DNA from: Alphaproteobacteria bacterium UBA6376
Lineage (GTDB): Bacteria; Pseudomonadota; Alphaproteobacteria; Rs-D84
NCBI GenBank assembly: GCA_002437665.1
Contig: DJQW01000001.1
Coordinates: 65,304-129,303 of the forward strand
Direction of reading: 5' to 3'
Length of the DNA: 64,000 nucleotides
Part shown: positions 3,194 to 51,587 of the stretch, one piece after another
Position numbering within the stretch: position 1 is the first letter of the stretch
Layout: each line of letters starts with the position of its first letter
Position numbers and translations under genes: made by a program
The notes under the pieces: generated by a model
The model's database searches: none
The model's input: the letters and a program-made list of their open reading frames with translations, nothing else
What the model was told of the DNA's origin: nothing

Positions 3194-3454
3194 GATACCC
3201 TTTCCTTTTTGTACTATTATTTTCGCACAGCATAGCATAACAGCACGGCGCACGCAAATCAAAGATTATATTGATTTTGCCCTGAAATAAAATTATAATA
3301 CCCGCGTTATGTCAGATAGTTATGTATTTTTCAGTCGCACATCATCCCCGTTGGGGGAATAATTTTTGCATATTTAATTACATAAAATAATTGCGATTTA
3401 CATCGCACAACCTTATTATAAAGCACATACATAAAAACCCGAAGGATTTAGAAA

Positions 3455-4732
3455 ATGTTGGACATCAGATTTATTCGCGAAAACCCAGACGTGGTTAAAA
3501 ACGCATGCCGTGTCAAGGGATTCGAAGATCACATTGACGAACTGTTGGCATTGGACGCACGCGTGCGCGAATTGAAAACAGCGACACAAACAATGACGGC
3601 TGAAAAGAACAAGGTTACACGTGAAATTCCAACCGCAACCGACAAAGCCCCACTGATTGCACGCAGCAAGGAAATTGCAAACGAAATCGCCGCCGACATG
3701 GCGGAATTGGCGGACAAAGAAGCCGCGCTGAATGATTTAATGCATCGCGTACCACAAATCCCAGATGCGTCCGCCCCAATCGGCCCAGACGACAGTGCAA
3801 ACGTAGAGGTTCGTCGTGTCGGCGCACCACGCGAATTTGATTTCACCCCACGTGCCCAGTGGGATTTACTGGACATGAATGGTTGGTGGTTGCCTGAAAA
3901 AATCGGCAAGATTTGCGGCACACGCACATACGCATTGGTTGGCGAAGCCGCCGAATTGCAACTGGCGATTGAAACATATGTTATTCAAAAATTGATTGCA
4001 AAAGGGTTCACATTTATTGAATGCCCATCTATCACCAAACCACAAACGATTTTCGACGCGGGCCACTTTATGGGCTCTGACCTGTCGGTGATGGACAACG
4101 ACGTATTTATGCTGGCGGGCACAGACCGTTGTTTGGCGGGCACGGCGGAAATCATTTTGAACTCGCTGCACGGTGGCGAAATTCTGAACGAACGCGATTT
4201 GCCAATTAAATACGCTGGATTTTCACCCTGCTTTCGCAAAGAAGCCGGTGCGGCGGGACGCGACACACGTGGACTGGCCCGTTTCCACCAGTTTAACAAG
4301 GTGGAACAGTACATCTATTGCACCCCAGCGCAGTCGAACGAAATGCACGAACACATTTTGAACAATTTGTGCGAGGTCATGGAAGATTTGGAATTGCCAT
4401 ATCGCGTAATTGCAAATTCCACTGGCGACATGGGTTTCAACAAGGTGAAAATGAATGATGTTGAGGCATGGGTTCCATCTGAAAACGCATACAAAGAATT
4501 GGGCAGTTGTTCGTCCATCGGTCAATTTCAGGCGCGCCGCACCAATACCCGTTATCGCGATGCAAACGGCGATGTACAATACGTTGCGACACTGAATAAC
4601 ACGGGTATTGCCGTGCCACGTGCACTGGTTCCTGTTTTGGAAAATCACCAGAATGCCGACGGCAGCGTGAATATTCCAAAGAAGTTGCAACCCCTGATGG
4701 GTGGTCGCACCAAGATTGGTGGCAAGCATTAA
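3455..4732 (+). CDS. serS: serine--tRNA ligase
   Basis: N-terminal MLDIRFIRENPD and the class II aaRS core are typical of SerS. Confidence 0.95.
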   Translation: MLDIRFIRENPDVVKNACRVKGFEDHIDELLALDARVRELKTATQTMTAEKNKVTREIPTATDKAPLIARSKEIANEIAADMAELADKEAALNDLMHRVPQIPDASAPIGPDDSANVEVRRVGAPREFDFTPRAQWDLLDMNGWWLPEKIGKICGTRTYALVGEAAELQLAIETYVIQKLIAKGFTFIECPSITKPQTIFDAGHFMGSDLSVMDNDVFMLAGTDRCLAGTAEIILNSLHGGEILNERDLPIKYAGFSPCFRKEAGAAGRDTRGLARFHQFNKVEQYIYCTPAQSNEMHEHILNNLCEVMEDLELPYRVIANSTGDMGFNKVKMNDVEAWVPSENAYKELGSCSSIGQFQARRTNTRYRDANGDVQYVATLNNTGIAVPRALVPVLENHQNADGSVNIPKKLQPLMGGRTKIGGKH

Positions 4733-4735
4733 AAA

Positions 4736-4759
4736 ACGGGGCAATGCCCCGTTTTTTTA
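4736..4759. terminator. bidirectional rho-independent terminator
   Basis: Hairpin acggggcaatgccccgt with an A-run on one side and a T-run on the other. It sits between convergent serS and the 4757-5272 gene. The identical hairpin recurs at 8992. Confidence 0.65.
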
Positions 4760-5272
4760 TTTCTGGAATTGCTTTTTCGCCGCAAAATATTTCAGTGGCA
4801 AAAATCCAAAATACAAATCTTTGAATTTGTTTTTTGACACCACATAATTCCATTTCTTTATCGCAGTCAGCAAATTGCGTTGTTCAAATTCAAATTTTTC
4901 ATTTCTGTAAAAGTTCTCCAATGTGTGCATCATTTGCATATATTCCAAATACACTGTGTTATCTTGCGTACCATATGGAATAAACACACTGGGCGCGATA
5001 AGCATATCTTCTTTTGCGCGTGTGGCATAATCTGCATATTTACGCGGGTTTTCGGCAATTTTGTGCAACTTGTAAAAAGAACGATAAAATTCTTGTGCTT
5101 CGGCGTAAAAATCGACCGATTTCTTTGTCTTGCGTGCCAAACGTTCATAATTCGCGTTCAACACATCTTCGACCGATGTGAAAAATTTTGCCACCGTCGC
5201 ATTCCAATCAACATACAATAAATCAAATCTGTCCATGTTAAATACCCCTTGTTCCATATACAATATAGACAA
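4757..5272 (-). CDS. hypothetical protein (AT-rich orphan gene)
   Basis: 171-aa ORF with no recognisable motifs. Visibly more AT-rich than its neighbours. Confidence 0.4.
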   Translation of the reverse strand: MSILYMEQGVFNMDRFDLLYVDWNATVAKFFTSVEDVLNANYERLARKTKKSVDFYAEAQEFYRSFYKLHKIAENPRKYADYATRAKEDMLIAPSVFIPYGTQDNTVYLEYMQMMHTLENFYRNEKFEFEQRNLLTAIKKWNYVVSKNKFKDLYFGFLPLKYFAAKKQFQK

Positions 5273-7282: not shown

Positions 7283-8134
7283 ATGTATATGAAACGCAGA
7301 TTATTTCTTTTGGCGGGTTATAATGCCCACGGTTTAATTGATGAATCACTGATTTTTTATATTCAGGCATTGGCGGCATGCGGCGATGTTGTGCTGTGCA
7401 TGGATTCTGATTGCAGTGCCGCTGAATTACAGCGGGTTGCACCATACGTCTTGCACGCGACCGCGCAACGTCACGGCGAATACGATTTCGGTTCATACAA
7501 GCGTGCATACATGTATGCGGCGGACGCCGACATTTTGAAAAATTACGAATTTGTGTATATGGTAAATGATTCTGTGTATGGCCCACTGATGGACATAGAA
7601 CCATCGCTGCGCCGTATGGAAGCATTAAATCGCGACGCGTTTGGTCTGGTGTATAATCCAACGGCATCGCGTCCGCATATTCAGTCATGGTTTATTGGTA
7701 TGCGCAAAAATGTATTCTTGTCCCCATGGTACGACGAATTTATGCGCGCCATTACCCGTCAACCGGACAAAGGGTCAATCACATACCTGTACGAACAGGG
7801 ATTCACCGAAATGCTGCGCGCACACCGCGTAAAATTTGCATGTTTGTATAATTGCCCCGGACGCAGTGTGTATAACAATGTTGCTGCCCTGTTCCGTCGT
7901 GGTATGCCATTTATGAAAAAGGTTGCGTTCAGTCGCGCAGACGGCGCATTGGGAAATCGCATTTTGTATATCTTACGCAATACGTCGCCCGCGGTGCGCG
8001 ATATGATTTTGGCATCGGCACGCCGCACATGGGGCGACGAATATATCAAATGGTTACTGACACGCAACCCAATAAAAATCACATATCGTCATATCAAACA
8101 CGCTTTGCGCAAGATATTTATAGAGGGGCTGTAA
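7283..8134 (+). CDS. putative polysaccharide/LPS biosynthesis protein (glycosyltransferase-like, possibly of the rhamnan-synthesis-F type)
   Basis: Sits in the glycosyltransferase cluster. The motifs are only weakly recognisable. Confidence 0.4.
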   Translation: MYMKRRLFLLAGYNAHGLIDESLIFYIQALAACGDVVLCMDSDCSAAELQRVAPYVLHATAQRHGEYDFGSYKRAYMYAADADILKNYEFVYMVNDSVYGPLMDIEPSLRRMEALNRDAFGLVYNPTASRPHIQSWFIGMRKNVFLSPWYDEFMRAITRQPDKGSITYLYEQGFTEMLRAHRVKFACLYNCPGRSVYNNVAALFRRGMPFMKKVAFSRADGALGNRILYILRNTSPAVRDMILASARRTWGDEYIKWLLTRNPIKITYRHIKHALRKIFIEGL

Positions 8135-8986
8135 ATGAAAAAAACACAACCACAAAAATCAGACATTCGTATTGCCGCCGTGACAATGGCACGCAATGAT
8201 GAATTTTTCTTGAACCGCTGGATTAAATATTACGGCGGACAAATCGGGTCTGAAAACCTGTATATCTATCTGGACGGATTGGATCAAAAAATCCCATCAG
8301 GTCACGCGAACGCCAACATAACAAAATTACCGCATCGTGACGAAGAACGCCAACGCGGGGACAAGACGCGCATATTACTGTTATCTGATTTGGCGAAAAA
8401 ATTATTCGCCGATGGTTACGATATCGTCATCGGTTGCGATTGCGATGAATTTCTGGTTGTTGACCCTGACATCAAAACAACATTGCCACAGTATTTGTCC
8501 AAAATTAAAAATCGCATAACGGTGTCCGGATTGGGTCTGGACGTTGGAATGGATTTAGAATCCGAAAGTGCATTGGATATAAACGCGCCATTTTTGACCC
8601 AGCGTAAATATGCCGTTCTGTCCACCCGCTATACCAAACCGGTTGTTTTGTTCCGTCCCCGCACATGGGGCAGCGGTTTCCACAGTGTCAAAGGCACAAA
8701 TTTCCACATTGATAAAAATCTGTATCTGTTGCATTTTGGCGGCGTGGATTTGGACATGATAAAAAATAAAATCGGCGACCGCACTGCATCATGGGGCGCG
8801 CACCTGAAAAAGCGCGCGCGCACGATTGACATTATCACACGCGCCCAAAACAAGAATCATTCAATGCGCGCCGCACGCATATTGCAAACGTTCCTGCGCC
8901 CAATTTATGATTTGAACAAGCCCGCAATGCTGGGTCTGAAATGGGTTGCAACAATCCCATCGCGTTTTGTAAAAACAGGAATATAA
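8135..8986 (+). CDS. putative glycosyltransferase (GT-A fold)
   Basis: N-terminal AAVTMARNDEFFLNRWIKYY and an acidic IVIGCDCDEF motif. Start is adjacent to the stop of the previous gene. Confidence 0.5.
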   Translation: MKKTQPQKSDIRIAAVTMARNDEFFLNRWIKYYGGQIGSENLYIYLDGLDQKIPSGHANANITKLPHRDEERQRGDKTRILLLSDLAKKLFADGYDIVIGCDCDEFLVVDPDIKTTLPQYLSKIKNRITVSGLGLDVGMDLESESALDINAPFLTQRKYAVLSTRYTKPVVLFRPRTWGSGFHSVKGTNFHIDKNLYLLHFGGVDLDMIKNKIGDRTASWGAHLKKRARTIDIITRAQNKNHSMRAARILQTFLRPIYDLNKPAMLGLKWVATIPSRFVKTGI

Positions 8987-8991
8987 CACAA

Positions 8992-9012
8992 ACGGGGCAA
9001 TGCCCCGTTTTT
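8992..9012 (+). terminator. rho-independent terminator
   Basis: acggggcaatgccccgt plus ttttt. The hairpin sequence is identical to the one at 4736. Confidence 0.6.
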
Positions 9013-9110
9013 CAAAGTTCAAATACCAAAGTTCAAAGTGCAAATAATGTGTGCGCCATTCGGCGCACTGCTTTATTCATTTGAACTTTGAACTCTGAAC
9101 TTTTAACTTT
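9012..9110. repeat. palindromic repeat element (family A: ttgaactttgaactctgaac arms around a gtgcgcc..ggcgcac core)
   Basis: Arms caaagttcaaagtgcaaataa and ttattcatttgaactttgaactctgaac around the hairpin gtgcgccattcggcgcac. Related copies at 57543, 62655 and, partially, 20089. Confidence 0.75.
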
Positions 9111-10260
9111 ATTTTATCACTTTCATTATCTGTTCTGTGATTTTGGTGGCGTCAAAGCGCGACAGATTTTCTGTGGCGACTGCTATCATTTTTTCTGTGT
9201 CCGCGCGACGCGTCCATGCGTCCATCATACGCAGCGCCAAATCCGTTGCGTCACCAGGCGCGAATAATAACCCAGCGCGTCCATCCATCAGAATCTCGCG
9301 CGGGCCATTACGACAATCCGACGCGATATTCAATGTGTTGGTGGCGGCGGCCTCTATCAATACGGTGGGCAGTCCCTCGGAATAACTAGACAATATATTC
9401 GCGCGCGCATGCGACATATACCCAAACGGATTACCCGCCGCCCCAACAAACTCTATATGACGCTGCGCCGGCAACGTACGCGCAATCTGTTCATATTCGC
9501 CGCGCATATCGCCATCGCCAACAAACACCATTTTAATATTTGGCCGCCCCGCGTTTTGCCAGAACATATCAAACCCACGCAGCACCGTTTCAATATCTTT
9601 TTCCCGCGTCATTCGCGCGACACATACGAAATAGTCACCCCGCATATATTTACCCGCCACCGCCAATTTGCGGGCACGCGCAATATCAATCGGGTTATAA
9701 ATCTGAATAATCTTGTCAGAATATTCGGGATACTTGGTACGCAATTCCGTTGCCGCGTCACGGGTCAGCATTACCAATTTATCATACATTGGCATGTACC
9801 GCATGCGGCCACCCGCATACAGCGCATCAATCGATGAATGCCACCACGTGATTTTTTTGCCACGAAATTTTTTTAATTCACGTGCGAATGAAAAATTATA
9901 GTAATCGATAAACACATCAACATCATCGAAACGATGCGATGACATCATCATATATTTACCAAATCGGTATATATCACGCGCCACGTGTTTTATAATTCGC
10001 CACAGGAAAAAGTGCGGCATCTGCGTTCCCAAAAACCGGCATGGGTACAATGCGGTCAATTTCACATCTGGATGCGCCGCAAACCAATCACGATATTGGG
10101 GAACACTGATATTCGTGTATGTTATCACACGAATGTCCACGTCCCCGCGCGCCAACAGCGCGTCAATCGTCTGAATCACCACGGATTCAACGCCACCAAC
10201 CTGCATATCACGCAGACATATCGCGATTGTTTTACGTTTCATTTTATGCAACACCCACAT
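9109..10260 (-). CDS. glycosyltransferase family 4 (GT-B fold)
   Basis: EX7E-type C-terminal motif SYSEGLPTVLIEAAA. Confidence 0.8.
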   Translation of the reverse strand: MWVLHKMKRKTIAICLRDMQVGGVESVVIQTIDALLARGDVDIRVITYTNISVPQYRDWFAAHPDVKLTALYPCRFLGTQMPHFFLWRIIKHVARDIYRFGKYMMMSSHRFDDVDVFIDYYNFSFARELKKFRGKKITWWHSSIDALYAGGRMRYMPMYDKLVMLTRDAATELRTKYPEYSDKIIQIYNPIDIARARKLAVAGKYMRGDYFVCVARMTREKDIETVLRGFDMFWQNAGRPNIKMVFVGDGDMRGEYEQIARTLPAQRHIEFVGAAGNPFGYMSHARANILSSYSEGLPTVLIEAAATNTLNIASDCRNGPREILMDGRAGLLFAPGDATDLALRMMDAWTRRADTEKMIAVATENLSRFDATKITEQIMKVIK

Positions 10261-11270
10261 TTAATAAATTCTGCAATTCCGCATCTGATTTTGCGCGCCC
10301 ACCCGTATGGCGGCGTGTCCAGCGCACCACAATTTTTCAAATTTGAAAAACATTTCTGTGCCAACGCAACATCGTCCGCATTGTCCAGATATTTAATCTT
10401 GCGATATGCCCACTTGATAAAGTACCAGCGGAAACGCCGCGACCATGCGTCCATTTGATATGGGGTCGCCTGCTCTTTATACAACTTGTACGATGTTTCG
10501 ATTCCGGTGCACAAACTCTGCATTATACGTAATTGCTTTGCAGACAAAACAATTCCGCCAAAATTCGGCACATAGAAATACAGTGGCAACGGCGCAATCG
10601 TCACAACTGGATTTTTCAACATAATCGCACTCCACCACGGGAAATCTTCAAACAAAATCCCCTTGATAAATGGCGTGTCCGCAATCAAACTGCGACGATA
10701 CAGATTCTTCCACACCTGACAGTGTTTAATCAGCCATTTGCGACGCGGGTTAAATGCATTATGCGCACGCTCCGTTGCATATTTATATACATCATCGGTC
10801 AACAATGTTTTAATGCGCGTCACATCATATTTTTTGTGCATGCGATACGGCACAACAGAATCCGTATCCAAATGCAGCACATGTCGCACCATCAGTTGCG
10901 GACGATAAATTCTGTCATACGTGAACGATACAATATCAGAATTATCGCGCGTCGCCAGATAGTGTGTAATTTCCATCGTCTGGGGGTGAATAAAATCGTC
11001 ACTGTCCAGATACAAAACATAATCACCCGTTGCCACCGCCATACCGGCATTGCGCGCATCCGACAGCCCACCATTTGGCTTGTTCACAATTTTGAATCGC
11101 GCATCACGGGCGGCATATTCAGACAAAATGGCGGCAGATCCATCTGGACTGCCGTCATTGACACAAATCGCCTCCCAATCAGAAAAAGTTTGGTTTAATA
11201 CACTGTCCAAACATCTGCGCAAATACCTTTCCACATTGTATATCGGTATTATCACAGAAATTGCAGGCAT
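10239..11270 (-). CDS. glycosyltransferase family 2
   Basis: N-terminus MPAISVIIPIYNVERYLRRCLDSVLNQTF and a DXD motif YLDSDD. Start refined to MPAIS. Confidence 0.85.
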   Translation of the reverse strand: MPAISVIIPIYNVERYLRRCLDSVLNQTFSDWEAICVNDGSPDGSAAILSEYAARDARFKIVNKPNGGLSDARNAGMAVATGDYVLYLDSDDFIHPQTMEITHYLATRDNSDIVSFTYDRIYRPQLMVRHVLHLDTDSVVPYRMHKKYDVTRIKTLLTDDVYKYATERAHNAFNPRRKWLIKHCQVWKNLYRRSLIADTPFIKGILFEDFPWWSAIMLKNPVVTIAPLPLYFYVPNFGGIVLSAKQLRIMQSLCTGIETSYKLYKEQATPYQMDAWSRRFRWYFIKWAYRKIKYLDNADDVALAQKCFSNLKNCGALDTPPYGWARKIRCGIAEFIKCGCCIK

Positions 11271-11284
11271 ATATTTTCCTTTTC

Positions 11285-12211
11285 TTATTTTTTGGTTTTC
11301 GTTTTGTACATGTGATTTATCATCTCGTCCGCGATGCTGCCTGGGATTGGATTTTTCGCCCACGGACTGTTATACGTTGTTTTCTGAAAGAATGCACCTG
11401 ACGTATATTCTTTGAACAACTTCTTGGTATATGGTTCATTCGCGACCGACCACCACAGCGCATGCGTTGGTGCTTGGTCAATATGGGGCATCGCATCAAA
11501 ATACTTTTTGGCAACAGGGTCATGTTCAACCAATGATTTGAACATCAACTGGTGCATAAAGTAATCAAATTCACGGGGTTCACGCGTCCAGAAATTCAGA
11601 ATCATCTGACGCCACGCCGCCAACAAATAAGACCCCTTGCGTGCACGAATGAAACAGTTCTGAATAAAACTGTACGCACTGCCAACCATATTTCCCGCCA
11701 TATAGACAAAGAAGTCCTGATTTATAATTTCATCTGGAATTGGCGCGGTTGCAAATCCGGTTGAATCCAACCAAATGCCACCATGTTCGTACAACAATTC
11801 AACACGACAAATATCGGCAAAGTGCGCATGCTTTATTTGGCCCGCTTTGCGTTTTGCAACAATTTCTGGGGGCAACGTGATATAGTCCCAAATGGTGTTT
11901 TCATCCAAAACAACCAATTCCTGTTTGCAATTTGCACGAATACTGCGGAAACATGCCTTGACCAATTCTGGTGCTTTGTCTTCGCCCTGTAACCACAGCG
12001 TCCAAATCTTTTCACGTTTGTCGTTGTGGACGGGACGAACCTCTGGCACAGTGCCGGCGGCCGGCACATAACGCGCCATATACCGTGGAATGGCAGTTGC
12101 CGCAACATTACATCTATGTTCACGACGCTTGTCACGCGACCACCACAATGGGTTCAAGATATGCGCGCGCAACACAATGTCCGCCAACGCAAATGTTCTG
12201 GAAAGTTTCAT
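11285..12211 (-). CDS. glycosyltransferase with DXD sugar-binding region (capsule-synthesis / GT32-like)
   Basis: HFADICRVELLYEHGGIWLDSTG motif. Paralogous to 37232..38203. Start refined to MKLSR. Confidence 0.6.
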   Translation of the reverse strand: MKLSRTFALADIVLRAHILNPLWWSRDKRREHRCNVAATAIPRYMARYVPAAGTVPEVRPVHNDKREKIWTLWLQGEDKAPELVKACFRSIRANCKQELVVLDENTIWDYITLPPEIVAKRKAGQIKHAHFADICRVELLYEHGGIWLDSTGFATAPIPDEIINQDFFVYMAGNMVGSAYSFIQNCFIRARKGSYLLAAWRQMILNFWTREPREFDYFMHQLMFKSLVEHDPVAKKYFDAMPHIDQAPTHALWWSVANEPYTKKLFKEYTSGAFFQKTTYNSPWAKNPIPGSIADEMINHMYKTKTKK

Positions 12212-12329
12212 GCATGTTCCTTTGTTTTGGTTATCTGAATAAAAACTTTTCTGGCACTTTACCATTCGTCGATATCTCTCATATTTGTCCCCTTTGTTGT
12301 TATGCATCTGTTCCCATCGTTTTTCCCTT

Positions 12330-37231: not shown

Positions 37232-38203
37232 TTATTCTGGCACGCCATTTGGCGGTGTGATGTCGGCCGCCCCCGTTTCGTACACGGTTTGAAACACCGG
37301 CGCACCAGCCGCCGATGCATCGCCCCCTGGGTGCGGCAACGCATGTGCACGATACATATTTAACAAGAAATAATACCAACTGTTCGGTTGCTTTTTTGCA
37401 AACTCGCTGCGCCGATGAATTTTGTATATGAAGCATGTGCGCGACAAATACCGCCACGCGTCCATATCAGCGGCGCGCCCCAAGAAGTACGAAAAATACT
37501 TTACATTACTGTTCAGATATGGAATCTGGCTGAACCAAATACGGTGACACCACGGGTGATATGTAAACAACACCGTCACAAACCAATGAAAGAAAAAGTA
37601 ATCAATCGCCCTGCGTTCGTGACGCCAATACTCTTCCAGAAAAACACGTATACAACGTATGAAATAGTTGTTCGGTGCGGCGTGAATAAAGAAATTAGAT
37701 ACATCTTTCTTGTTCGGATTTTGCAATATGAAAAACGTCTGTTTCATAATAAAGTTCGGTATTTTGTCCATCATCAGACACGACGCATCAATCCACGTGC
37801 CACCATACATGTCCAACAATGCCACCCGCACATAGTCCGAAAAATGTGCAGGTTCAATAATTCCGCGACGATATTTATCCATAATATGCGCCGGAATATC
37901 CAAATACTGTGACACATTTTTCTCAGTAATAATTACCGCTTGCGGGTAAAAGCAAAATATAGAATTCAATCCCATTTGAATAAAATCTGGACGTTCATCT
38001 TGCAGCCACATTGTCCACACGCGGTTGACCGGCGGAACCGTCAAATTGCACTTTGGAATTTGATGTTGCGGCATACCCTGCACCATTTTAGTGACATACA
38101 AATACCGACGCAGGTAATCCTTGGTTGCCGATTTTTTCCCACAAAAAATTTTGCGTATATAAAAGCGTACCCAACGATACCAGTTTTCAAATATTCTGAA
38201 CAT
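37232..38203 (-). CDS. glycosyltransferase with DXD sugar-binding region (paralog of 11285..12211)
   Basis: VWTMWLQDERPDF...HFSDYVRVALLDMYGGTWIDAS parallels IWTLWLQGEDKAPE...HFADICRVELLYEHGGIWLDST. Confidence 0.55.
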   Translation of the reverse strand: MFRIFENWYRWVRFYIRKIFCGKKSATKDYLRRYLYVTKMVQGMPQHQIPKCNLTVPPVNRVWTMWLQDERPDFIQMGLNSIFCFYPQAVIITEKNVSQYLDIPAHIMDKYRRGIIEPAHFSDYVRVALLDMYGGTWIDASCLMMDKIPNFIMKQTFFILQNPNKKDVSNFFIHAAPNNYFIRCIRVFLEEYWRHERRAIDYFFFHWFVTVLFTYHPWCHRIWFSQIPYLNSNVKYFSYFLGRAADMDAWRYLSRTCFIYKIHRRSEFAKKQPNSWYYFLLNMYRAHALPHPGGDASAAGAPVFQTVYETGAADITPPNGVPE

Positions 38204-40281: not shown

Positions 40282-41556
40282 CTATTCATTTCGCAATACA
40301 TCAACGGGGTCGGTGGACGCCGCCTTCCATGCGGGATACAGCGTTGCCAAAAACGCCAGCGCAATCGCCAGCACCGCAATTCCAATAACCGTTGACGGCA
40401 CCAGTTTCGACGGCAATTCCGACAAATAATACAATTCCGATGGGAACAAATCGCGCCCTGTTACCCATTGAAAGAATTGACGTATTGGTTCGATATAAAT
40501 CGCAACAACGACGCCTAATACCGTGCCAAAGAACGCGCCAATCACACCAATACTTGTCCCCGACAGAACAAATATTTTCATCATGGATCTACGCGACACA
40601 CCAAACGTGCGCAGTACCGCAATGTCTTTGTTTTTATCTTTGACCAACATGACCAACGACGACACAATGTTAAATGCCGCCACAATCACAATCAGCATCA
40701 GAATTAAAAACATTACATTTGACTCAACCTGTAATGCGCCAACAAAACCGCGATTTAATTCACGCCAATCGCGCACAACAAATCCATCTGGCAACAGACG
40801 CGCCAACGCATCGCGTACGGCGGTGGTATCTTCGGGATTACGCAAGAACAGGTCAATATGCGTTACCGCATTTCCGATATTCAAATATTTCTGGGCGGTT
40901 TCCAGTGGCATAAATATATATCCGGAATCATATTCGTACATTCCCATAAAGAATGATGACATCACCGGATATGCCATAATGCGTGGCATTGTACCAAATG
41001 GTGTTGGTGTTGCACCCGACGCCGATACCAACGACACCTTGTCACCCATACCGATACGCAAACTGCGCGCCAGTGACGCACCCGCCACCAATTCGCCATC
41101 ATGAATTTCTGATAATTTTTTACCATATATTTTTGTGCCGGTCTCGGTCTTGGCCGCTAAATCCGTCATACGAATCCCGCGCACCATTGCGCCAGTATTA
41201 TTACCACCGGCGGTTGCCATAACCTGCCCTTCGGCAATCGGGACAATGCCGGTTGCATGCGCGGCAACAACCTTGTTCTGTTGCATTTTATCAATCAGAT
41301 AATCGTAATCGGTAATCGCGCCATCTTGGTGATAAACAACGACATGACCATTCATACCAACAATACGCGACAGTAATGTTTCATGAAATCCGCCCATCAC
41401 CGACATCACAACAATCAATGTCGCAACGCCCAGCGTAATACCAATCAACGACACCCACGATATCACAGAACCAAAACCGCGCTTCTTGGCGGCCAGATAT
41501 CTGAATGCGATTTTTCTTTCCAGTTTTGAAAACAACATACTTTCAACCTTATTCAC
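40282..41556 (-). CDS. lipoprotein-releasing system transmembrane permease (LolC/LolE family)
   Basis: FRYLAAKKRGFGSVISWVSLIGITLGVATLIVVMSVMGGF N-terminal TM1 and the MacB-like/FtsX permease architecture. Confidence 0.85.
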   Translation of the reverse strand: MNKVESMLFSKLERKIAFRYLAAKKRGFGSVISWVSLIGITLGVATLIVVMSVMGGFHETLLSRIVGMNGHVVVYHQDGAITDYDYLIDKMQQNKVVAAHATGIVPIAEGQVMATAGGNNTGAMVRGIRMTDLAAKTETGTKIYGKKLSEIHDGELVAGASLARSLRIGMGDKVSLVSASGATPTPFGTMPRIMAYPVMSSFFMGMYEYDSGYIFMPLETAQKYLNIGNAVTHIDLFLRNPEDTTAVRDALARLLPDGFVVRDWRELNRGFVGALQVESNVMFLILMLIVIVAAFNIVSSLVMLVKDKNKDIAVLRTFGVSRRSMMKIFVLSGTSIGVIGAFFGTVLGVVVAIYIEPIRQFFQWVTGRDLFPSELYYLSELPSKLVPSTVIGIAVLAIALAFLATLYPAWKAASTDPVDVLRNE

Positions 41557-42889
41557 TTAAAAACGCACGCAACGCATCACCAACCAGTGGCGTCATTTCA
41601 CCCGATGGAATTTGTGCAGCATCAACAATCGAAATAATACGTGGCGACATAAATACCACCAATTCCGCAAACGGTGAAATCAACGTTTCAGGCGTCGTTA
41701 CAAACGAATGCGTTGGAATACCAATTATCACATAGTTGTCACCAACACTGGACGGAATATTAAATGATGTCAGTTCACCATTGCTGGTGCGCAAAACAAT
41801 TTTAGCATCAATTTTATTACGACCACCAAAATCACCATATTTACCCGTTGCCCCGACAATCAGGTCTGTTTCTAGGCGTTCTTCCTTGCTGCATTGGCCA
41901 ATATCAAAACGCGATTGCCAACCATTTGGAATCACAAATTGCCCACGCGAAATCAGAACAACATTCGCCTGTTGCGACAAAAATTCTTGCAATGTTTTTG
42001 TATTCACCTCTGGACTGACGACCAGCGCACGTCCAACCACCCCTGGGATTGACATTTTAATATTATTTTCACCAAACGCCGGCAACATATTCATCCAAAC
42101 AATCGGATTGTCCGTGCGCGGATACACACGATACACATCAATATCCCACGCCAACATATATTTTTTCGACGCAATGTCGGCGATGATTCTGGAAACCTCA
42201 CGCTCGGTCTGGTAATTGCCTTCGAACACCAATGTCTTGTCATTCCAGTCCACCAACAGGTTGCGCACATCTGCGCCACGCATCGCATCAATCAACGCCA
42301 TAATAATCGATTGATCGTGTGGCATTTTAACCAACCACTTTGCACGATGCGTCAAATGAATTTCACCCGCGTCCGCATCATATGAATAATACGCGCGCCC
42401 CATTTTCGCCATCAGTTCAACCGCATCGGCCAGCGTTCCTGCGGAAATAGACCCTGATATTTTTTCATACATTTCTTCGTCAGCAACAACCGCAATATCT
42501 GACCCATCTAACAGTTTTTCCAGCGCACGTTTAACCGTCAAATCGCGAAATTCGTAATCTGACACCGCCAATTCTGGTAATGCATCACCGGTGTTCAGAC
42601 GCACCATTTCAATTTTTTCTTCGGGCACAACCGACACAACCGTTTGATTGTCCCAGTTGACCTCGCACCGCTTTGGCAAATCCAACGAAAAGCGTCGCGC
42701 CGTATCGGTGGTCAATGCCGCCTTTTTCGGGAAAATAGGCACAGAATTTTCATCAATGACCAAATTATCAACAACCGTAACCGTGTCATACTGCGGTTCT
42801 TCATCGTTGTTTTGGACACACGCCACCAACGCCATGCACATGCACGCCGCCCCCAGCATTTTGCCCAACCAATTATCGATTATTTTCAT
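41549..42889 (-). CDS. lipoprotein, possibly secretin-like (STN-like N-terminal segment), co-transcribed with lolCD
   Basis: Lipobox ..ALVAC. Segment RDLTVKRALEKLLDGSDIAVVAD resembles STN domains. The secretin assignment is weak. Start refined to MKIIDNW with an AGAAAGG RBS. 8-nt overlap with the lol permease gene. Confidence 0.35.
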   Translation of the reverse strand: MKIIDNWLGKMLGAACMCMALVACVQNNDEEPQYDTVTVVDNLVIDENSVPIFPKKAALTTDTARRFSLDLPKRCEVNWDNQTVVSVVPEEKIEMVRLNTGDALPELAVSDYEFRDLTVKRALEKLLDGSDIAVVADEEMYEKISGSISAGTLADAVELMAKMGRAYYSYDADAGEIHLTHRAKWLVKMPHDQSIIMALIDAMRGADVRNLLVDWNDKTLVFEGNYQTEREVSRIIADIASKKYMLAWDIDVYRVYPRTDNPIVWMNMLPAFGENNIKMSIPGVVGRALVVSPEVNTKTLQEFLSQQANVVLISRGQFVIPNGWQSRFDIGQCSKEERLETDLIVGATGKYGDFGGRNKIDAKIVLRTSNGELTSFNIPSSVGDNYVIIGIPTHSFVTTPETLISPFAELVVFMSPRIISIVDAAQIPSGEMTPLVGDALRAFLSE

Positions 42890-42921
42890 TCCGCCTTTCT
42901 CCTTTGCTGCACTGCACAATA

Positions 42922-43266
42922 TCAGATATTCATCAATCTTTCAAATTCTGCCAGTGTCATTTCATAAATCGGTTTCTGTGTCGGTGTTGTCAAATCTTTG
43001 ACCCGCGCATAGTTTTCATTAAATCGATTTATCACCGAAATAATTTCCGGCGTCAATTCATGTTTTTTGTCCGCCATCAGACGACGTCCATATTCTGCAA
43101 CAAATTCCAACGTGTCCGCCGCAAAAAAACGTCCAACATAGTTTTCAATCGCAATACCGCCCTTTTCCACACAGATGGCCGACATCATCATTGTCATCTG
43201 GTTGTAAAAATTTGCCAGTTTTATAAAATTTGCAACTGTTATTGCCATGTTATTCTCTTGCTCCAT
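42922..43266 (-). CDS. hypothetical protein
   Basis: 114-aa ORF upstream of the lipoprotein gene; no motifs recognised. Confidence 0.35.
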   Translation of the reverse strand: MEQENNMAITVANFIKLANFYNQMTMMMSAICVEKGGIAIENYVGRFFAADTLEFVAEYGRRLMADKKHELTPEIISVINRFNENYARVKDLTTPTQKPIYEMTLAEFERLMNI

Positions 43267-43314
43267 TTTTCCCTATTATAAAAACTATTGCCCCATCAAC
43301 GCAAATAAATTATA

Positions 43315-43704
43315 ATGCATTGCATGAGATTTATATACCTGATTTTAATAGCAACTGTCGCGGCATGTGCATCGCCAAATCGTGGCAATATTGATGACGC
43401 AACTGTTTTGAATTGGGAAAACGAAGCCGTCACGATGGAACAGTTCGTCCGTGATCACAAGGCATGCTTGGGCGTGAACAAGCCATCGTATATGCCACGC
43501 AGCCGTATTTCAAAATTGCTGGCCCCAAATCAGAGTGGCCAAATGCCCGACTGGGACGGCCTGTGGGTGACATTCCAATCGAACGAGTACAAGGACACCA
43601 GCCAGCGTTCATTGCTGTCCGTGCCACGCAACACAACATCTAAAACCGTCGGTGCATATCGCAAGTGCATGTTTAGACGCGGTTATTTATTGCGTGCCAG
43701 TTGA
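43315..43704 (+). CDS. hypothetical lipoprotein
   Basis: Signal/lipobox LILIATVAACASP. Confidence 0.4.
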   Translation: MHCMRFIYLILIATVAACASPNRGNIDDATVLNWENEAVTMEQFVRDHKACLGVNKPSYMPRSRISKLLAPNQSGQMPDWDGLWVTFQSNEYKDTSQRSLLSVPRNTTSKTVGAYRKCMFRRGYLLRAS

Positions 43705-43762: not shown

Positions 43763-44443
43763 ATGAAACGGACAATTTGGTTTTGGGTTTATTTTATCGT
43801 TGCCATTGTTTTGGCAACCTACTTTTCTGTACGTGTTATTATGACCAGTATGGGGCGTGGTGACCTGTCGCGCGTGCGCAGCATTTCAATATCAGCCGAC
43901 ATCGCGGACAAGGATATGTCCGCATTGGCGGCCGCCGCCGCGGTTGCACCGGGGACATCGGCACTGACAGTCAATTTGAACCAGTTAAATCATCGTATTG
44001 GTGCGGTTGCAGGTGTGCGCGCATCCGCGGTGCGTCGCTTGCCAAATGGTAATTTGGTTGTACGCGTAAAATTATACCGCGCGGTCGCGCTGTGGACGGA
44101 TGGTATGAATTATTTTCCGCTGTCCGCCGATGGCACAATTGTAAACCAACCCAGCACAGAGCGCAAAGCCGGCACGGTTCTGTTCCGTGGCACATTACCA
44201 AATGATATCAGTGAAATTACAACCGTTGCGCATAACATGATTGGCGATTTGAACTATATGGAATGGATTGAAAACCGCCGCTGGGATTTGGTCACGACCG
44301 GTGGCATTACGGTAATGCTGCCTGAAAAATCGCCGGACGCCGCGATTGCGCAACTGATTGTCTTGAACAAGAATCACCATATTTTGGATCGTGATATCAG
44401 TGTTATCGACATGCGCGACGATGCGCGAATATTGGTAAAATAA
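43763..44443 (+). CDS. ftsQ: cell division protein FtsQ (POTRA domain)
   Basis: N-terminal TM helix followed by a periplasmic domain. Sits directly upstream of ftsA. Confidence 0.65.
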   Translation: MKRTIWFWVYFIVAIVLATYFSVRVIMTSMGRGDLSRVRSISISADIADKDMSALAAAAAVAPGTSALTVNLNQLNHRIGAVAGVRASAVRRLPNGNLVVRVKLYRAVALWTDGMNYFPLSADGTIVNQPSTERKAGTVLFRGTLPNDISEITTVAHNMIGDLNYMEWIENRRWDLVTTGGITVMLPEKSPDAAIAQLIVLNKNHHILDRDISVIDMRDDARILVK

Positions 44444-44449
44444 GAAACA

Positions 44450-46225
44450 ATGAACCTGTTTGATTCGGCTTTTTTATGTCTGGACATTGGCACGTCGGGT
44501 GTACGTGGCATGGGACATCGCGTGCGCGGTGGCCGACTGGACAAATCCGCCGTATTCAGCGTGGACAGTTTTGATACCGTTTTCGCGATAAAGTCCGTTA
44601 TTGACGAACTGGAACGTATGGTTGGCGCACGATTTGACGACGCATATGTCACGGGTAATTTTGGCGCATCAATCTTTGATATGTCCGCCAAAAGCACAAA
44701 ATGGAACGGCGAACACAAAATCACCGCATCGGATGTCCGCGCGCAAATCGCACAAATCAGTGTCCCAGACGGCTATTTTCCAATGCATATTATACCACTG
44801 CGCTATGATACACCAACGGCGCGCAATATGGTATCACCCGTTGGTTACACTGATCGCCAGTTGATATCGGCATTTGGAACAATTATGTACCAGCGTGATG
44901 CGTTTGAAAGCGTATCAACAAAACTGCGCCATGCGCACATTTTACCAAACAGTTTCTATGACCCACAATGGTTGCTGAATGCCGCCCTGCGCCAGAAAAA
45001 ACAGACCGTTATGTTTCTGGATTTGGGCGCAGAATTTACATCTGTATCCATTTGGATGGATCGTGGGCCGGTATGGCACGCCAAGATTCCATTGGGCGGG
45101 ACACATATATCACGCGACATCTCAGAAAAACTGCATATCGGATTTGATGATGCCGAACGCATCAAACGCGCGGTCGCATGTCTGTACCCAAAGGAAATGG
45201 ACAGATTTACCCCCGCTGACACCGCATACGAATTTTCACGCGGCGATATAAATGACATATTCTTGCCGCACATGGTTGAAATCGCATCGCAAATTGCGAA
45301 TGCATCCAGTGGCGCGATTGCAAAATATCACCCAACAAAAATCATTCTGACGGGTGGCGGCGCAACAACCGACGGCGCAACAGAATTTATTGAAAATGCA
45401 TTTTCAATTCCAACCGAAAACATCGGCGGCGATGCATCGGTACGCGCCCTGTCCGCATTTATCTGGAATGCAGAGGCCGCACATCGTGGCGCATATCTGG
45501 CACGACATGACCGCTGGGCACGACGCTGGGCGCGCATTACAAAATTATTCCACCACAAACAAAAACGCCGCACGCAGTTTATTCCGATTATGCCCAGTAC
45601 ACTGTGCTTTAACATGCGCAAGCAATCAACGTATTCAATGTTTCGTGCGGGCGGCATATCGATGATACACGTCGATATTATGGACGGTTTTTACGTTGAC
45701 CGTGTTGCCGGCGGAATCCCCGAATTAAAATTGATTCGCGCCCACACCGACGCGCACCTGCATGTACACCTGATGACCGAGAGTCCATCTGTCTGGGCGG
45801 CTGATGCCGTTGCGGCGGGTGCAAACACCGTAATCATGTCAACAAATACGTCCGGCCTGCGTGCGGCGGTGCGGGGCGTACGTGCGGCGGGCGTGCGCGC
45901 GGGCGTTGCAATCAACCCAGAAACATCGGTTGATATATTAAAGCCAATCCTGCGTGATTTGGACGAGGTTATGATTATGACCGTGCGCCCAGGTGCGGCT
46001 GGGCAAGAGTTCCAGACCGAATGTCTGAAAAAAATCGAAATATTGGCGGCAACACGTCGTCGCTATGGCTTAAAATTCGTAATATCTGTTGATGGTGGCG
46101 TGAACGATAAAACGGCACAAATGTGCTGGGCCGCCGGCGCGGATTTACTGGTCAGCGGTTCATATCTGGCGCGCAGTCCGGATTTCCCATTGGCGGTTCA
46201 GAGTTTATTGAAAAAACAAAAATAA
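44450..46225 (+). CDS. ftsA: FtsA fused in frame to a ribulose-phosphate 3-epimerase-like domain
   Basis: N-terminal 385 aa or so is FtsA (LDIGTSGVRG, ILTGGGATTDG, amphipathic RWARRWARITKLF). The C-terminal 200 aa or so is Rpe-like (IMPSTLCFN.., HVDIMDGFYV, HVHLM, VAINPET, MIMTVRPGAAGQEF, ISVDGGV). No stop codon lies between them. Confidence 0.75.
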   Translation: MNLFDSAFLCLDIGTSGVRGMGHRVRGGRLDKSAVFSVDSFDTVFAIKSVIDELERMVGARFDDAYVTGNFGASIFDMSAKSTKWNGEHKITASDVRAQIAQISVPDGYFPMHIIPLRYDTPTARNMVSPVGYTDRQLISAFGTIMYQRDAFESVSTKLRHAHILPNSFYDPQWLLNAALRQKKQTVMFLDLGAEFTSVSIWMDRGPVWHAKIPLGGTHISRDISEKLHIGFDDAERIKRAVACLYPKEMDRFTPADTAYEFSRGDINDIFLPHMVEIASQIANASSGAIAKYHPTKIILTGGGATTDGATEFIENAFSIPTENIGGDASVRALSAFIWNAEAAHRGAYLARHDRWARRWARITKLFHHKQKRRTQFIPIMPSTLCFNMRKQSTYSMFRAGGISMIHVDIMDGFYVDRVAGGIPELKLIRAHTDAHLHVHLMTESPSVWAADAVAAGANTVIMSTNTSGLRAAVRGVRAAGVRAGVAINPETSVDILKPILRDLDEVMIMTVRPGAAGQEFQTECLKKIEILAATRRRYGLKFVISVDGGVNDKTAQMCWAAGADLLVSGSYLARSPDFPLAVQSLLKKQK

Positions 46226-46228
46226 AAA

Positions 46229-46251
46229 ACGGGGCATACGCCCCGTTTTTT
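46229..46251 (+). terminator. rho-independent terminator after the ftsA-rpe gene
   Basis: acggggcatacgccccgt hairpin plus a T-run. Confidence 0.65.
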
Positions 46252-47071: not shown

Positions 47072-49084
47072 TTACTCCACCAATAACAGGTCGTCTTCCA
47101 GTTTATGAATCTGGTCGCGCAATTCGGCCGCGTCTTCAAATTCCAGATTCTCGGCCGCGGTGCGCATCTTTTTGGTCAAATCCTTTATCTGCTTGCGGAT
47201 GCTATCTGCGTCCATAACACCGCCCGATTTATCATACACAAAACGACGCGCCTTGTCTGTCTTGTCTGTTTTTTCACCAACCTCTGCAAATACGGCCTTG
47301 GACACGGTTGTTGGCGTAATGCCATGCGCCGCGTTATACGCCATTTGCTTTTCACGACGACGCGCGGTTTCTGTCAATGCCGCATTCATAGAATCCGTCA
47401 TAACATCGGCATACAGAATCACACGCCCTTTTGCATTACGTGCCGCACGACCAATGGTCTGAATCAGCGAACGCGTCGAACGCAAGAAACCTTCTTTGTC
47501 CGCGTCCATAATCGCGACCAATTCGCATTCTGGCACATCCAACCCTTCGCGCAACAAATTGATACCAACCAAGACATCATATTTACCTAAACGCAAATCA
47601 CGTAACAGTTCAATGCGTTCCAGCGTTTCAATATCACTGTGCAGATACTTTGCCCGAACACCATTTTCATTCAGGTAATCGGTCAACTGTTCCGCCATCT
47701 TTTTGGTCAGTGTTGTAACCAATACGCGACCAGACGTTTTCTTGATTTGCGCCAACAAATCATCAACCTGATTTTCCGTTGGACGCACGTCACATTCCGG
47801 ATCAAGTAATCCGGTTGGACGAATAACCTGCTCTGCCACAATGCCACCCGCCTGTGTCATTTCCCATTCGGCGGGCGTTGCCGATACAAATATAGTTTGC
47901 GGACGCAACGCATCCCATTCATCAAATGTCAGCGGTCTGTTATCAATACACGCCGGCAGGCGGAATCCATACTGTGACAGCGTTTCCTTGCGCGCACGGT
48001 CACCACGTGACATCGCCGAAATTTGCGGTACTGTAACATGGCTTTCATCAATAAATAAAATCGCATCGCGTGGCAGGTATTCAAACAATGTCGGTGGTGG
48101 CATACCCGCCGCACGTCCCGACAGATACCGCGAATAATTTTCAATCCCGCGACACGTCCCCGTTGATTCCATCATTTCAATATCAAAATTCACACGTTCG
48201 CGCAGACGTTGTTCCTCTATATACTTCATATTTTCATGAAAGTATTTCAAGCGTTCTTCCAAATCAGTTCTGATTTGACCGATTGCCTGTAAAACACTGG
48301 GCATTGGCGTTGCATAGTGCGTATTTGGGTAAATCGCAATTCTGTCCAACTTTTGCAACTTTGCCCCCGTCAAGGTGTCAAATTCCCAAATCTCTTCGAT
48401 TTCGTCGCCCCAGAACGACAGTTTCCACGCCCTGTCCTGTGAATGTGATGGGAATACGTCCAGCGTATCGCCACGCACACGAAAATCGCCGCGCTCAAAC
48501 GCCATATCATTACGCTTGTACTGAATATCAACCAGCGCATGCATCACATCATTTTGACCAATTTTATCACCCGCATGCAGAACCAGTTTCATACCCGAAT
48601 ACTGTTCCGGTGACCCCATACCATAAATAGATGACACGGACGATACGACGATAACATCGCGTTCTTCCAACATGGCGCGCGTCGCACTGTGGCGCATACG
48701 ATCCAACTGTTCATTGATGGACGCGTCCTTGTCAATGTATGTGTCGGTGGTGGGCATATACGCCTCTGGCTGGTAATAATCATAGTACGACACAAAGTAT
48801 TCAACGTGGTTGTGCGGGAAAAACGATTTCATTTCCGTGTACAACTGGGCCGCCAAGATTTTATTTGGTGCCATAATCAACGCCGGCCGCGACAGTTCTG
48901 CAATCACATTCGCCATTGTGAATGTTTTCCCAGACCCCGTCACCCCCAGCAAAACCTGACTGCGTCGGCCATCACGAACACCCGCCACCAAATCAGAAAT
49001 GGCGGCCGGCTGGTCACCCATTGGGGCGTAATTACTTTCCAGTGAAAATATGCTTTTTTTGTTCACACTATTATTGTAATTCAT
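47072..49084 (-). CDS. uvrB: excinuclease ABC subunit B
   Basis: [20 protein letters not shown] and helicase motifs through the C-terminal UvrB/UvrC interaction domain. Start refined to MNYNNSV. Confidence 0.95.
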
Positions 49085-49112
49085 TATAATCAAATTACAA
49101 GGACAGAAGAGA

Positions 49113-51587
49113 ATGGCATTAAAACCCAGATACAAGCGCAGAATAATATGGTCTGTGGTGGCGATTGTTGCCACCGCGATTGTGGCATTGGTCATAATTC
49201 CACCAATGATTACACTGGACAGTATGCGCGGCAAAATCGAACAGGCGATTGAAACCCAGACCGGAATCACCGCCCAAATAAACGGCAATGTGCATTTCAG
49301 TTTGCTGGGACGCGCCACAATCGTTGCGCATAATGTTGTTATTCCAAACGGTCATATTGACGCGGTAATGTTTTCAGTGCCATTGACACATATTTTCAAT
49401 CTGGCGGATGCGCCATTGTCCAATCGCATCATTGTTGGTGGCGCAGAATTGGAAATCAGTTCGTTGGACGCACCTGATTTTGCACATGCGGTTGACATAT
49501 ACGATTCCAACGTAAAATTCCATGGCAAAAACTATGAAATTCAGCGGGCACGTTTTACCGATGGTAAACTGAACGGCACGGTTCGCACGCGCGATCACAA
49601 ATACGATGTAGAATTTGAAAACGACGAATTTATAATCCGCAATTACAATAATAATTTGGAAATCACGGGGCAACTGTTTTCGGACGGAACGGCGCGTGGC
49701 CACTTGGACATTGAAACCGCAAACGTCAATGAATGGTTTGAATTTCGTACACCGCGCATTGACCGCGAAATAAAACTGAGTATGGATTTCAGTTGGGACG
49801 GCGGTTACGGTTTTGAATTTACAAATATTGAATCTGATAATTTTTCAGGCAGTATAAAATTATCACCCGATGGTAATCGGGACATTCACCTGCGCGCCAC
49901 TGACCTAGATTATGATTTTTCATTCTTGATGAATCCATCACGCCTGTATGCACGCACAACATTTGATTTGGATTTATACGGCAAACTAAAAATCGGCGGA
50001 CGCACTTTCCAGCATTTACGTCTGGACGCAATCGGCACACATGATTTAATCCAGATATCGACAATCATCGCCGACAATATCGCAATCACCGGTGGCACGA
50101 TTGATGCAAATGGTGCGCACGATATCTTGATAAATATGCCGGTCGATGGTGTACAAACAATGTGCCTGTTTTCGGGCACACCGGACAAATGGACATGCAA
50201 CAAATTTGCATACGGCAATATCGGTGGCAGTGTTGCGGTTGATCAGGATTCTTTTAACGCATTTATGTCCGCCGACGAAAATATGCCCGATGCAGACAAA
50301 TTGATTCGTGCGGCGCGCCGTTTGGGCACACGTGGTGCGTTAAATTTCAGGTTCAAAAACATCGCCGGCACATTTGATATTGACGGCGATCGGGTAAATT
50401 CATCATACACATTTGCGCAAAATAAAAACCTGCGTTGGGCAATGCCAACGTTCAAATACCTGCCTGATTTTATGCTGGACGCGGCGGGCGATTTCACATG
50501 GAATGGCGCAATCATGAAATTTACGCCATACAATAAAAAATGGAATATCACGGTTGCAAAAAATCAGTTCTATTTATCAGGCAAAAGTTTCAAAGAATTA
50601 TTACCAGATGTAAACCTGCAATCTGTAAATGATTTTGAATATACAATATCCGGAACATTTAATGACCGCAATATATCTAATCTGGAATTGCAAATTGCGG
50701 GTCACACATTTACTGGCACGGCCAGTGGGCGTAACATAACCCTGCGCACAGACGCGTTAAACATCGATGCATTCGCGAACCAATATTATATTGATAATTA
50801 CGACGAACTGGAATTTTTGGGGCCGTCCCCTTTGACCGTGCCATTTACGTTACCTGTGAATATTTCGCTGTCCGCAGATACAGTAATTTATAACGGCACA
50901 GAATATAAAAACTTTGTCTATGCCTTGAAACCAAATACGCAAATATTGTCCATCACAGACCGTGCGCGTGGCAACCTGTTGGCAACAATTTCGCGCACCG
51001 ACAATCGGTACGACATATCGGCCCAGTTAAATCGTTTTGTGATTGATGGGTATTTATTGTCGGGACGTATGCCAATAAATATTCGCGATTCTGTGATTAC
51101 CGCCGATATCAATATGAAAACCCACGGCATAATTGCACATGACATATTCTATAACTTGGCGGGTGATATTGATATGATTGTCGATGGCGGTTATCTGGTC
51201 GGATTGGGATTTGATAATTTTTACGCCAGCGCAAATCAAATCACATCGTTCAATGCCGAATACGCATTGGCAGATGCACTGACCAGTGGCGAAACAAAAA
51301 TCAAGAATATGCACATTATCGGTAAATACGATAATGGCGGATTTATTACGTCGAGGCCCCTGACATTGCAAATGCGCCACGTTGATGCGTATGGTGAATT
51401 TGATGTTGATAATGGCAATATGACGGTTATGCTGAATATGGTGCTGCGCGGCACATCGCCCACGCCCGCACCGGTGCGCCTGACCATTGCGCCTGATGGG
51501 ACACGTAATTATTCACTGACCGATATTATGACGAATTTCGACAGCGGTTTTATGCGCAGTTTTGTAAAAACGCATTCGCAATTCTAG
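49113..51587 (+). CDS. AsmA family outer-membrane biogenesis protein
   Basis: N-terminal TM anchor and the long repetitive beta-rich region typical of AsmA-like proteins. Confidence 0.65.

Follow-up and report, generated by a model that had tools for sequence, protein, structure and literature searches.

An in-frame fusion of FtsA with a ribulose-phosphate 3-epimerase-family barrel in reduced-genome gut Alphaproteobacteria of the order Rs-D84

Results

A single reading frame from FtsA to an epimerase barrel

We analysed a 64,000-nucleotide stretch of contig DJQW01000001.1 (assembly GCA_002437665.1, positions 65,304 to 129,303) from Alphaproteobacteria bacterium UBA6376, a member of the order Rs-D84; this whole stretch is referred to below as the window. 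At 44450..46225 on the + strand it carries a single open reading frame (ORF) of 591 amino acids (aa) in which FtsA is followed, without a stop codon, by a domain of the ribulose-phosphate 3-epimerase (Rpe) family. A first-pass annotation of the sequence had noticed this ORF and left two explanations for it: a stop codon lost by sequencing error or recent mutation, or a genuine fusion of FtsA with a pseudoepimerase. The frame as read in the window is free of interruptions up to the stop codon at 46223-46225, which confirms the continuous ORF, and all the motifs that had been quoted from it (IMPSTLCFN, HVDIMDG, HVHLM, MTVRPGAAGQ, ISVDGGV and RWARRWARITKLF) are present. Four parts follow one another in the protein: an FtsA core (residues 1-342, 44450..45475), a long helix (residues 343-365, 45476..45544), a disordered basic linker with the sequence FHHKQKRRTQFIP (residues 366-378, 45545..45583) and an Rpe-family (beta/alpha)8 barrel (residues 379-591, 45584..46222).

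Both domains were recognized by family models. The Pfam model FtsA (PF14450) matched residues 189-322 (E 9e-13, 49.1 bits against a cut-off of 31.8) and Ribul_P_3_epim (PF00834) matched residues 382-573 (E 1e-43, 149.5 bits against 21.1), so that the similarity of the C-terminal part to Rpe, which the first-pass annotation had left to a profile search, is significant. The NCBIfam rpe model NF004076 scored 173.2 bits and exceeded its cut-off of 165. Scores below the cut-offs were obtained with the ftsA equivalog TIGR01174, which aligned over residues 30-333 (86.2 bits, cut-off 175.85), the rpe equivalog TIGR01163 (155.4 bits, cut-off 212.6) and NF007009 (17.6, cut-off 409).

Distribution and conservation of the fusion

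A search of 5.8 billion proteins yielded more than 120 protein clusters with 64-94% identity to the fusion, all of 588-599 aa and each with both Pfam domains. When one genome per species was scanned, the fusion matched 301 genomes. The best 80 of these 301 are gut metagenome-assembled genomes (MAGs) labelled Candidatus Enterousia, uncultured Alphaproteobacteria or uncultured Rickettsiales, apart from one labelled Bacteroides fragilis, which is evidently a mislabelled bin; the circular 958,618-bp assembly OZ007020.1 (locus L034) is among them. The fusion ORF is intact, with a length of 571-598 aa, in 88 of the 88 related genome loci, one of which (L001) is 97% identical to the window. All carriers of the fusion are reduced-genome gut Alphaproteobacteria (Rs-D84/Candidatus Enterousia).

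When 1.84 billion representative proteins were scanned exhaustively with HMMER, full-length fusions were recovered down to 28-30% identity. Below them in the ranking stood only stand-alone Rpe proteins with at most 40% identity; no unfused FtsA above about 113 bits and no close unfused relative were found among these proteins. Three further divergent relatives came from JGI metagenomes, two of them complete fusions (566 and 571 aa) and one ended by a contig edge. The profile for this metagenome scan was built from a four-sequence alignment of the N-terminal domain, a nine-sequence version being too divergent. A profile search with 12 divergent fusions gave only 5 matches in a large protein database, where the pre-selection of candidates was probably swamped, though P0139 and P0271-P0273 were obtained in this way, and only 3 matches were obtained with the divergent fusion P0138 as the query. 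A 209-aa protein starting at residue 381 (P0137) was considered as a stand-alone version of the barrel and rejected: its cluster consists of fragments of 148-269 aa on contigs of 0.8-5.6 kb.

The ratio of nonsynonymous to synonymous substitutions (dN/dS) against close relatives was 0.04-0.14 in the FtsA core; in the Rpe barrel, the most constrained part of the fusion, it was 0.02-0.09. The linker, with 0.15-0.8, is its fastest-evolving region. Judged by these ratios, both halves of the fusion are under strong purifying selection.

The FtsA core

An AlphaFold2 model of the whole fusion, based on an alignment of 49 sequences, had a mean predicted local distance difference test (pLDDT) score of 91.2, with values of about 90-97 over residues 1-342. 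The core is predicted to adopt an actin-like ATPase fold, and a strand-helix-strand-strand module of the SHS2 type at about residues 74-161 occupies the position of the FtsA 1C subdomain in the model; the modelled N-terminal part thus has the subdomain arrangement of FtsA (1A, 1C/SHS2 insert, 2A, 2B). In a Foldseek search of the PDB, the top 19 matches were all FtsA (target-normalised TM 0.64-0.72), and PilM ranked lower (TM 0.54-0.56). The protein aligns with gammaproteobacterial FtsA over residues 16-337. Nucleotide-binding motifs were located at D12-I-G14 (phosphate-1), D191-L-G193 (phosphate-2) and G302-G303-G304 (adenosine). G193, G302 and G304 are invariant or nearly so among divergent fusions. 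P0138 no longer has the motifs, and the P0139 clade retains them only in part. On the strength of the model, the FtsA half is divergent but complete, and the first-pass annotation was right about an FtsA part with an amphipathic helix.

The helix and the linker

The helix at residues 343-365 was modelled with a pLDDT of 83-88. Its end overlaps a basic amphipathic segment, RWARRWARITKLF (residues 355-367, 45512-45550, + strand), which is a candidate membrane-targeting sequence with an internal rather than a C-terminal location. The hydrophobic moment of the segment is 0.77-0.86, compared with 0.57 for the membrane-targeting sequence of E. coli FtsA. In a set of 143 fusions, a comparable segment, whose moment reaches 0.6 or more, occurs in 84%, and the linkers have a median net charge of +10. 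We regard the segment as a probable membrane-targeting helix, unusual in being internal.

The linker proper is predicted to be disordered, with pLDDT below 50 at residues 368-374. An internal translation start at M381 was considered and rejected since this residue varies among the fusions (M/L/Y/F/I/Q); no Shine-Dalgarno-like sequence was seen before it in the window sequence.

As a separate observation, a GC-richer clade of fusions (P0142, P0143, P0144 and P0146; loci L089-L091, labelled as Rickettsiales MAGs) has a short Pro/Arg-rich stretch as a linker, without the amphipathic segment. If these proteins bind the membrane, other means would be required.

The epimerase barrel and its active site

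The C-terminal part matched solved Rpe structures in Foldseek with TM 0.85-0.91 and a root-mean-square deviation of 1.4-2.0 Å (2FLI, 7SBJ, 5UMF, 3OVR). Its closest PDB sequence match was 2FLI from Streptococcus pyogenes (137 bits). The nearest named stand-alone Rpe proteins belong to Lactobacillales (Lactovum, Trichococcus, Aerococcus), with 36-39% identity, and not to proteobacteria, and E. coli Rpe is only 29-32% identical to the barrel. The barrel may not be of alphaproteobacterial origin.

In the literature, Rpe has a His/Asp/His/Asp tetrad for metal binding and acid-base chemistry, together with a cushion of three methionines (PMC9978339), the substrate is docked by one Ser and three Gly residues, and two flexible loops cap the site (PMC5312968). 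To compare these positions, 139 fusions were aligned with 108 stand-alone Rpe proteins and E. coli Rpe. The tetrad H407, D409, H440 and D548 is present in the window protein, matches the residues of E. coli Rpe and is kept in 137-138 of the 139 fusions. The methionine cushion is likewise kept (M411 in 132, M442 in 139 and M510 in 134 of 139), as are the docking residues S383 (135/139), G518 (135/139), G550 (137/139) and G570 (133/139). The partly degenerate active site supposed in the first-pass annotation was therefore not borne out: all the catalytic, cushioning and docking residues listed in the literature are present, in 132-139 of the 139 fusions. Comparison of orthologous loci, structure prediction of the C-terminal part and inspection of its His and Asp residues gave, respectively, an in-frame fusion, an Rpe barrel and an intact H407/D409/H440/D548 set instead of degeneration.

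Where the sequence departs from the canonical one is in the capping loops, with DGFYVDR (residues 412-418) in place of DGHFVPN and RPGAAGQ (residues 513-519) in place of (N/E)PGFGGQ. Within the family these states are common (F414 in 133, D417 in 123, R or K418 in 123, A516 in 127 and A517 in 121 of the 139 fusions), and they are rare among the 108 stand-alone Rpe proteins. Because they are fixed across the fusion family, the altered positions are to be read, on this comparison, as lineage-specific adaptations and not as drift. The His residue that corresponds to F414 forms a dimer-interface salt bridge in the Rpe of Leishmania (LdRPE), according to a homology model (PMC8756792); by analogy, the change at F414 may concern oligomerisation or lid behaviour, not chemistry.

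A sublineage without the catalytic residues

A few very divergent representatives lack the catalytic residues, namely P0138 and P0274, which are 75% identical to each other, and separately P0141. Across the three, H407 is replaced by Y or N, D409 by T and D548 by C or Y, with loss of the phosphate loop. P0138 has H407Y, D409T and D548C, lacks the PGAAGQ loop and has degenerate nucleotide motifs in its FtsA part. The P0138/P0274 contigs have 24-26% GC and retain the synteny of the window (loci L085, L086 at 10001-11770 and L087 at 3001-4773), and the proteins are still full length. The AlphaFold2 model of P0138, whose input alignment included non-degenerate members, retains both folds (pLDDT 87.9). 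For the P0138/P0274 pair, dN/dS was about 0.20 in the barrel and 0.37 in the FtsA part, both values being approximate as they come from one pair at about 25% GC.

The first-pass annotation's second explanation, a genuine FtsA-pseudoepimerase fusion, thus holds for the window protein as regards the fusion; the prefix "pseudo" does not apply to it, since the full catalytic and docking set is present. Judged by its residues, the distant AT-rich P0138/P0274 sublineage, with H407, D409, D548 and the phosphate loop lost, is where the label fits. That this sublineage retains the barrel under selection after the loss of the catalytic residues suggests that the barrel is worth keeping without catalysis and has a second, structural role besides the enzymatic one.

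Gene neighbourhood

The gene directly upstream of the fusion is ftsQ (226 aa, 43763..44443, + strand; Pfam FtsQ_DivIB_C, E 1e-9), which ends 6 nt before the fusion start codon. An ftsQ homologue occupies this position in 87 of the 87 loci with enough upstream sequence, and its end shares 4 nt with the start of the fusion in relatives. On the downstream side, the fusion gene faces the convergent genes tsaE and uvrB. The first-pass annotation had rightly remarked that ftsZ does not follow; tblastn with an E. coli query revealed no FtsZ-like sequence, either in the window of 64 kb or in the 80 related loci searched. The same kind of search, again with an E. coli query, detected no second Rpe-like sequence in the window and the 80 related loci, only the fused Rpe. 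The order lolD-lolC-unknown-unknown, unknown-ftsQ-fusion, tsaE-uvrB is kept even at about 30% identity of the fusion.

A GC-rich hairpin flanked by A and T runs lies between the fusion gene and the convergent tsaE (46224..46251, not assigned to a strand). It has 12 pairs, 6 of them GC, followed by a T run in a consensus scan and is likely to be a bidirectional intrinsic terminator, as a pattern match of a kind no commoner here than in shuffled sequence.

Three genes between lolC and ftsQ (41549-43704) code for proteins of 456 aa (- strand), 114 aa (- strand) and 129 aa (+ strand) without a Pfam or NCBIfam match. Relatives with a fusion of only about 30% identity (L081, L083, L085, L087, L088) have counterparts that agree in size, position and strand, and the trio looks like a conserved unknown module beside the division genes. 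On the other side, the longest uvrB ORF (47072-49318, - strand) begins with a GTG about 90 codons upstream of the UvrB model match and overlaps a divergent 824-aa gene; the true uvrB start probably lies deeper in the ORF. No family match was obtained for the 824-aa protein (49113-51587, + strand), and its counterparts in relatives give faint or weak AsmA matches.

Farther away, the segment 30342-36795 encodes a protein of 1429 aa that combines DUF4011, AAA_11/AAA_12 helicase and MTES_1575 restriction-endonuclease-like domains, followed by a DUF2924 protein and by a large serine recombinase of 529 aa which resembles CcrB and XisF. The segment looks like an inserted island and may be a mobile or defence element. 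A glycosyltransferase and capsule-synthesis cluster (RgpF-like, GT2, GT4, Caps_synth) adjoins recA at 7283-12307, and another Caps_synth gene is found close to the recombinase island, at 37232-38203.

Discussion

We consider it probable that the gene is an ancient and genuine fusion fixed across Rs-D84, in which an FtsA anchor, an amphipathic helix, a linker and an active Rpe barrel are united in one polypeptide. The two halves share a single frame, both are under selection, and both folds and the catalytic residues have been retained. In the arrangement we propose, FtsA would be followed by a basic amphipathic helix matching its membrane-targeting sequence, by the disordered basic linker and by an Rpe barrel with the whole catalytic apparatus. 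The FtsA part would serve as the divisome membrane anchor of the cell, and the Rpe part would be an active epimerase of the ribulose 5-phosphate/xylulose 5-phosphate (Ru5P/Xu5P) type, probably the pentose-phosphate Rpe of the genome, held at the membrane or the divisome. Solved stand-alone Rpe enzymes are dimers or hexamers. Because of this, and because the AT-rich sublineage keeps a catalytically dead barrel, the barrel probably has a structural function as well, most likely in oligomerising or positioning FtsA.

The proposal agrees with what has been reported for the order. All members of Rs-D84 have reduced genomes of less than 1 Mb, MreB, RodA and MrdA are encoded, and most members encode the non-oxidative steps in the pentose-phosphate pathway, transaldolase excepted (PMC12306168). 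The fusion probably accounts for the Rpe step credited to Rs-D84, since the examined loci contain no second Rpe-like sequence. In GenBank and JGI records (P0032, P0139, P0146, P0147, P0271) the protein is named "ribulose-phosphate 3-epimerase" or "hypothetical protein" and never FtsA; since the public records name only these, automated or annotation-based surveys are likely to score FtsA as missing from Rs-D84. Full-text literature searches returned no description of an FtsA-epimerase fusion.

Several points weigh against the reading of the protein as an FtsA anchor with an active epimerase. Both equivalog models, TIGR01174 and TIGR01163, scored under their curated cut-offs, so by this sequence measure an orthologous function is not guaranteed for either half. 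Substrate specificity could differ, both capping loops being non-canonical. The amphipathic signal is modest (z about 0.8-2 against composition-shuffled linkers), the segment is missing in the P0142-P0146 clade, and an FtsA membrane-targeting helix followed by a domain of 210 residues is an unusual arrangement. The selection on the catalytically dead sublineage was estimated, approximately, from its single AT-rich pair.

A stronger form of the proposal gives the barrel a still larger part. It would be an integral module of the divisome anchor, acting as an oligomerisation platform or as a pentose-phosphate sensor which sets FtsA assembly, so that division would be coupled directly to the sugar-phosphate supply; catalysis would be dispensable, as in the AT-rich sublineage with its dead but selected barrel. 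We put this forward tentatively and hold it to be doubtful. An even bolder extension would be that the tethering of FtsZ in Rs-D84 is unlike the canonical mechanism with a C-terminal membrane-targeting helix.

Of the competing explanations, a pseudoenzyme is the least improbable, though we judge it unlikely for the window protein. The barrel would no longer epimerise and would be a structural, oligomerisation or ligand-sensing appendage of FtsA. The altered capping loops (GHFVPN to GFYVDR and PGFGGQ to PGAAGQ) and the TIGR01163 score speak for it, as does the loss of catalytic residues in P0138 and P0274 and separately in P0141, where the domain is still selected and a non-catalytic role thus exists in the family. 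However, both the window protein and about 98% of the sampled fusions have an intact tetrad, methionine cushion and Ser/Gly docking set, the tightest constraint in the protein falls on the barrel, and NF004076 was exceeded. Moreover, Rs-D84 has been reported with the Rpe step (PMC12306168), for which the examined loci offer no other Rpe-like sequence.

It is rather improbable that the gene yields two products, a canonical FtsA and a free Rpe, by cleavage of the linker or by an internal start. The amphipathic helix lies exactly where FtsA usually ends, residues 366-378 are disordered, basic and fast-evolving and could be a protease site, and the arrangement would ensure co-expression in a genome that has little regulation. 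There is no obvious conserved cleavage motif, though, and the variable M381 with no Shine-Dalgarno-like sequence seen ahead of it does not look like a start. The junction has also stayed in frame over deep divergence, which separate products would not need.

We give little credence to a third explanation, that the N-terminal domain is an FtsA/PilM-like paralogue of the actin fold that does something else, for instance scaffold or regulate the epimerase, and that the true FtsA is elsewhere or absent. Its sequence is indeed divergent (86 against 176 bits with TIGR01174; E about 1e-6 for the best FtsA match in the PDB), ftsZ is not adjacent and the Asp of the first phosphate motif is lost in some clades. 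Yet the gene comes right after ftsQ in all 87 loci, often with a 4-nt overlap, every FtsA structure outranked PilM in the fold search, and the 1C insert of the FtsA type and a helix at the membrane-targeting position are both present. A second FtsA would also be unlikely in genomes of less than 1 Mb.

An artefact or recent lesion, in which the stop between adjacent ftsA and rpe genes was lost and the fusion is biologically meaningless, has only the unusual architecture itself in its favour and a next to negligible probability, and a lost stop, a sequencing error or a decaying gene can be regarded as excluded on the sequence evidence because the fusion is intact, with the identical in-frame junction, in all 88 of the 88 independent assemblies, which stem from many studies and hosts, in more than 120 clusters and in distant relatives at 28-53% identity with the same neighbourhood, because dN/dS is well below 1 with purifying selection on the linker and both domains, and because no close unfused relative was found among the 1.84 billion representative proteins and a systematic error shared by Illumina and long-read circular assemblies (L034) is not plausible.

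The C-terminal membrane-targeting helix of FtsA is generally taken as requiring a free C-terminus. In this core divisome protein, a whole order of gut bacteria puts a metabolic enzyme of 213 residues after the helix, and the arrangement has survived deep divergence. Should the barrel be active, a reaction in the pentose-phosphate pathway would be tethered at the membrane or the division site; if it is structural, it would represent a natural experiment in the control of FtsA oligomerisation. Either way, the fusion would be a physical link between division and metabolism in Rs-D84 which has not been described previously.

Comparison with known systems

The N-terminal half of the fusion resembles FtsA (PF14450/TIGR01174; 1E4G, 4A2A, 7Q6D/F/G/I, 3WQT) in its predicted fold, in the 1C insert and the three nucleotide motifs, in the position of its gene after ftsQ and in the basic amphipathic helix at the usual membrane-targeting site. 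Nevertheless, it is only 14-18% identical to the solved FtsA structures and well below the equivalog cut-off. Unlike in FtsA, ftsZ does not come after the gene, and the amphipathic helix is internal and followed by an enzyme domain of 213 residues. With Rpe (PF00834, NF004076; 2FLI, 1RPX, 3OVP, 1TQJ), the C-terminal half shares the barrel, the tetrad, the cushion of three methionines, the N-terminal Ser and the three docking Gly residues. It differs in being joined to FtsA, in its changed capping loops and in its score under the TIGR01163 equivalog cut-off.

UgtP of Bacillus subtilis, OpgH of E. coli and GdhZ and KidO of Caulobacter are metabolic enzymes which moonlight as division regulators. 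The likeness of the fusion to them is conceptual: an enzyme of central metabolism is physically linked to the FtsZ/FtsA machinery and could couple nutrients to division. These regulators, however, are separate proteins which bind FtsZ conditionally, whereas in Rs-D84 the enzyme is covalently built into FtsA.

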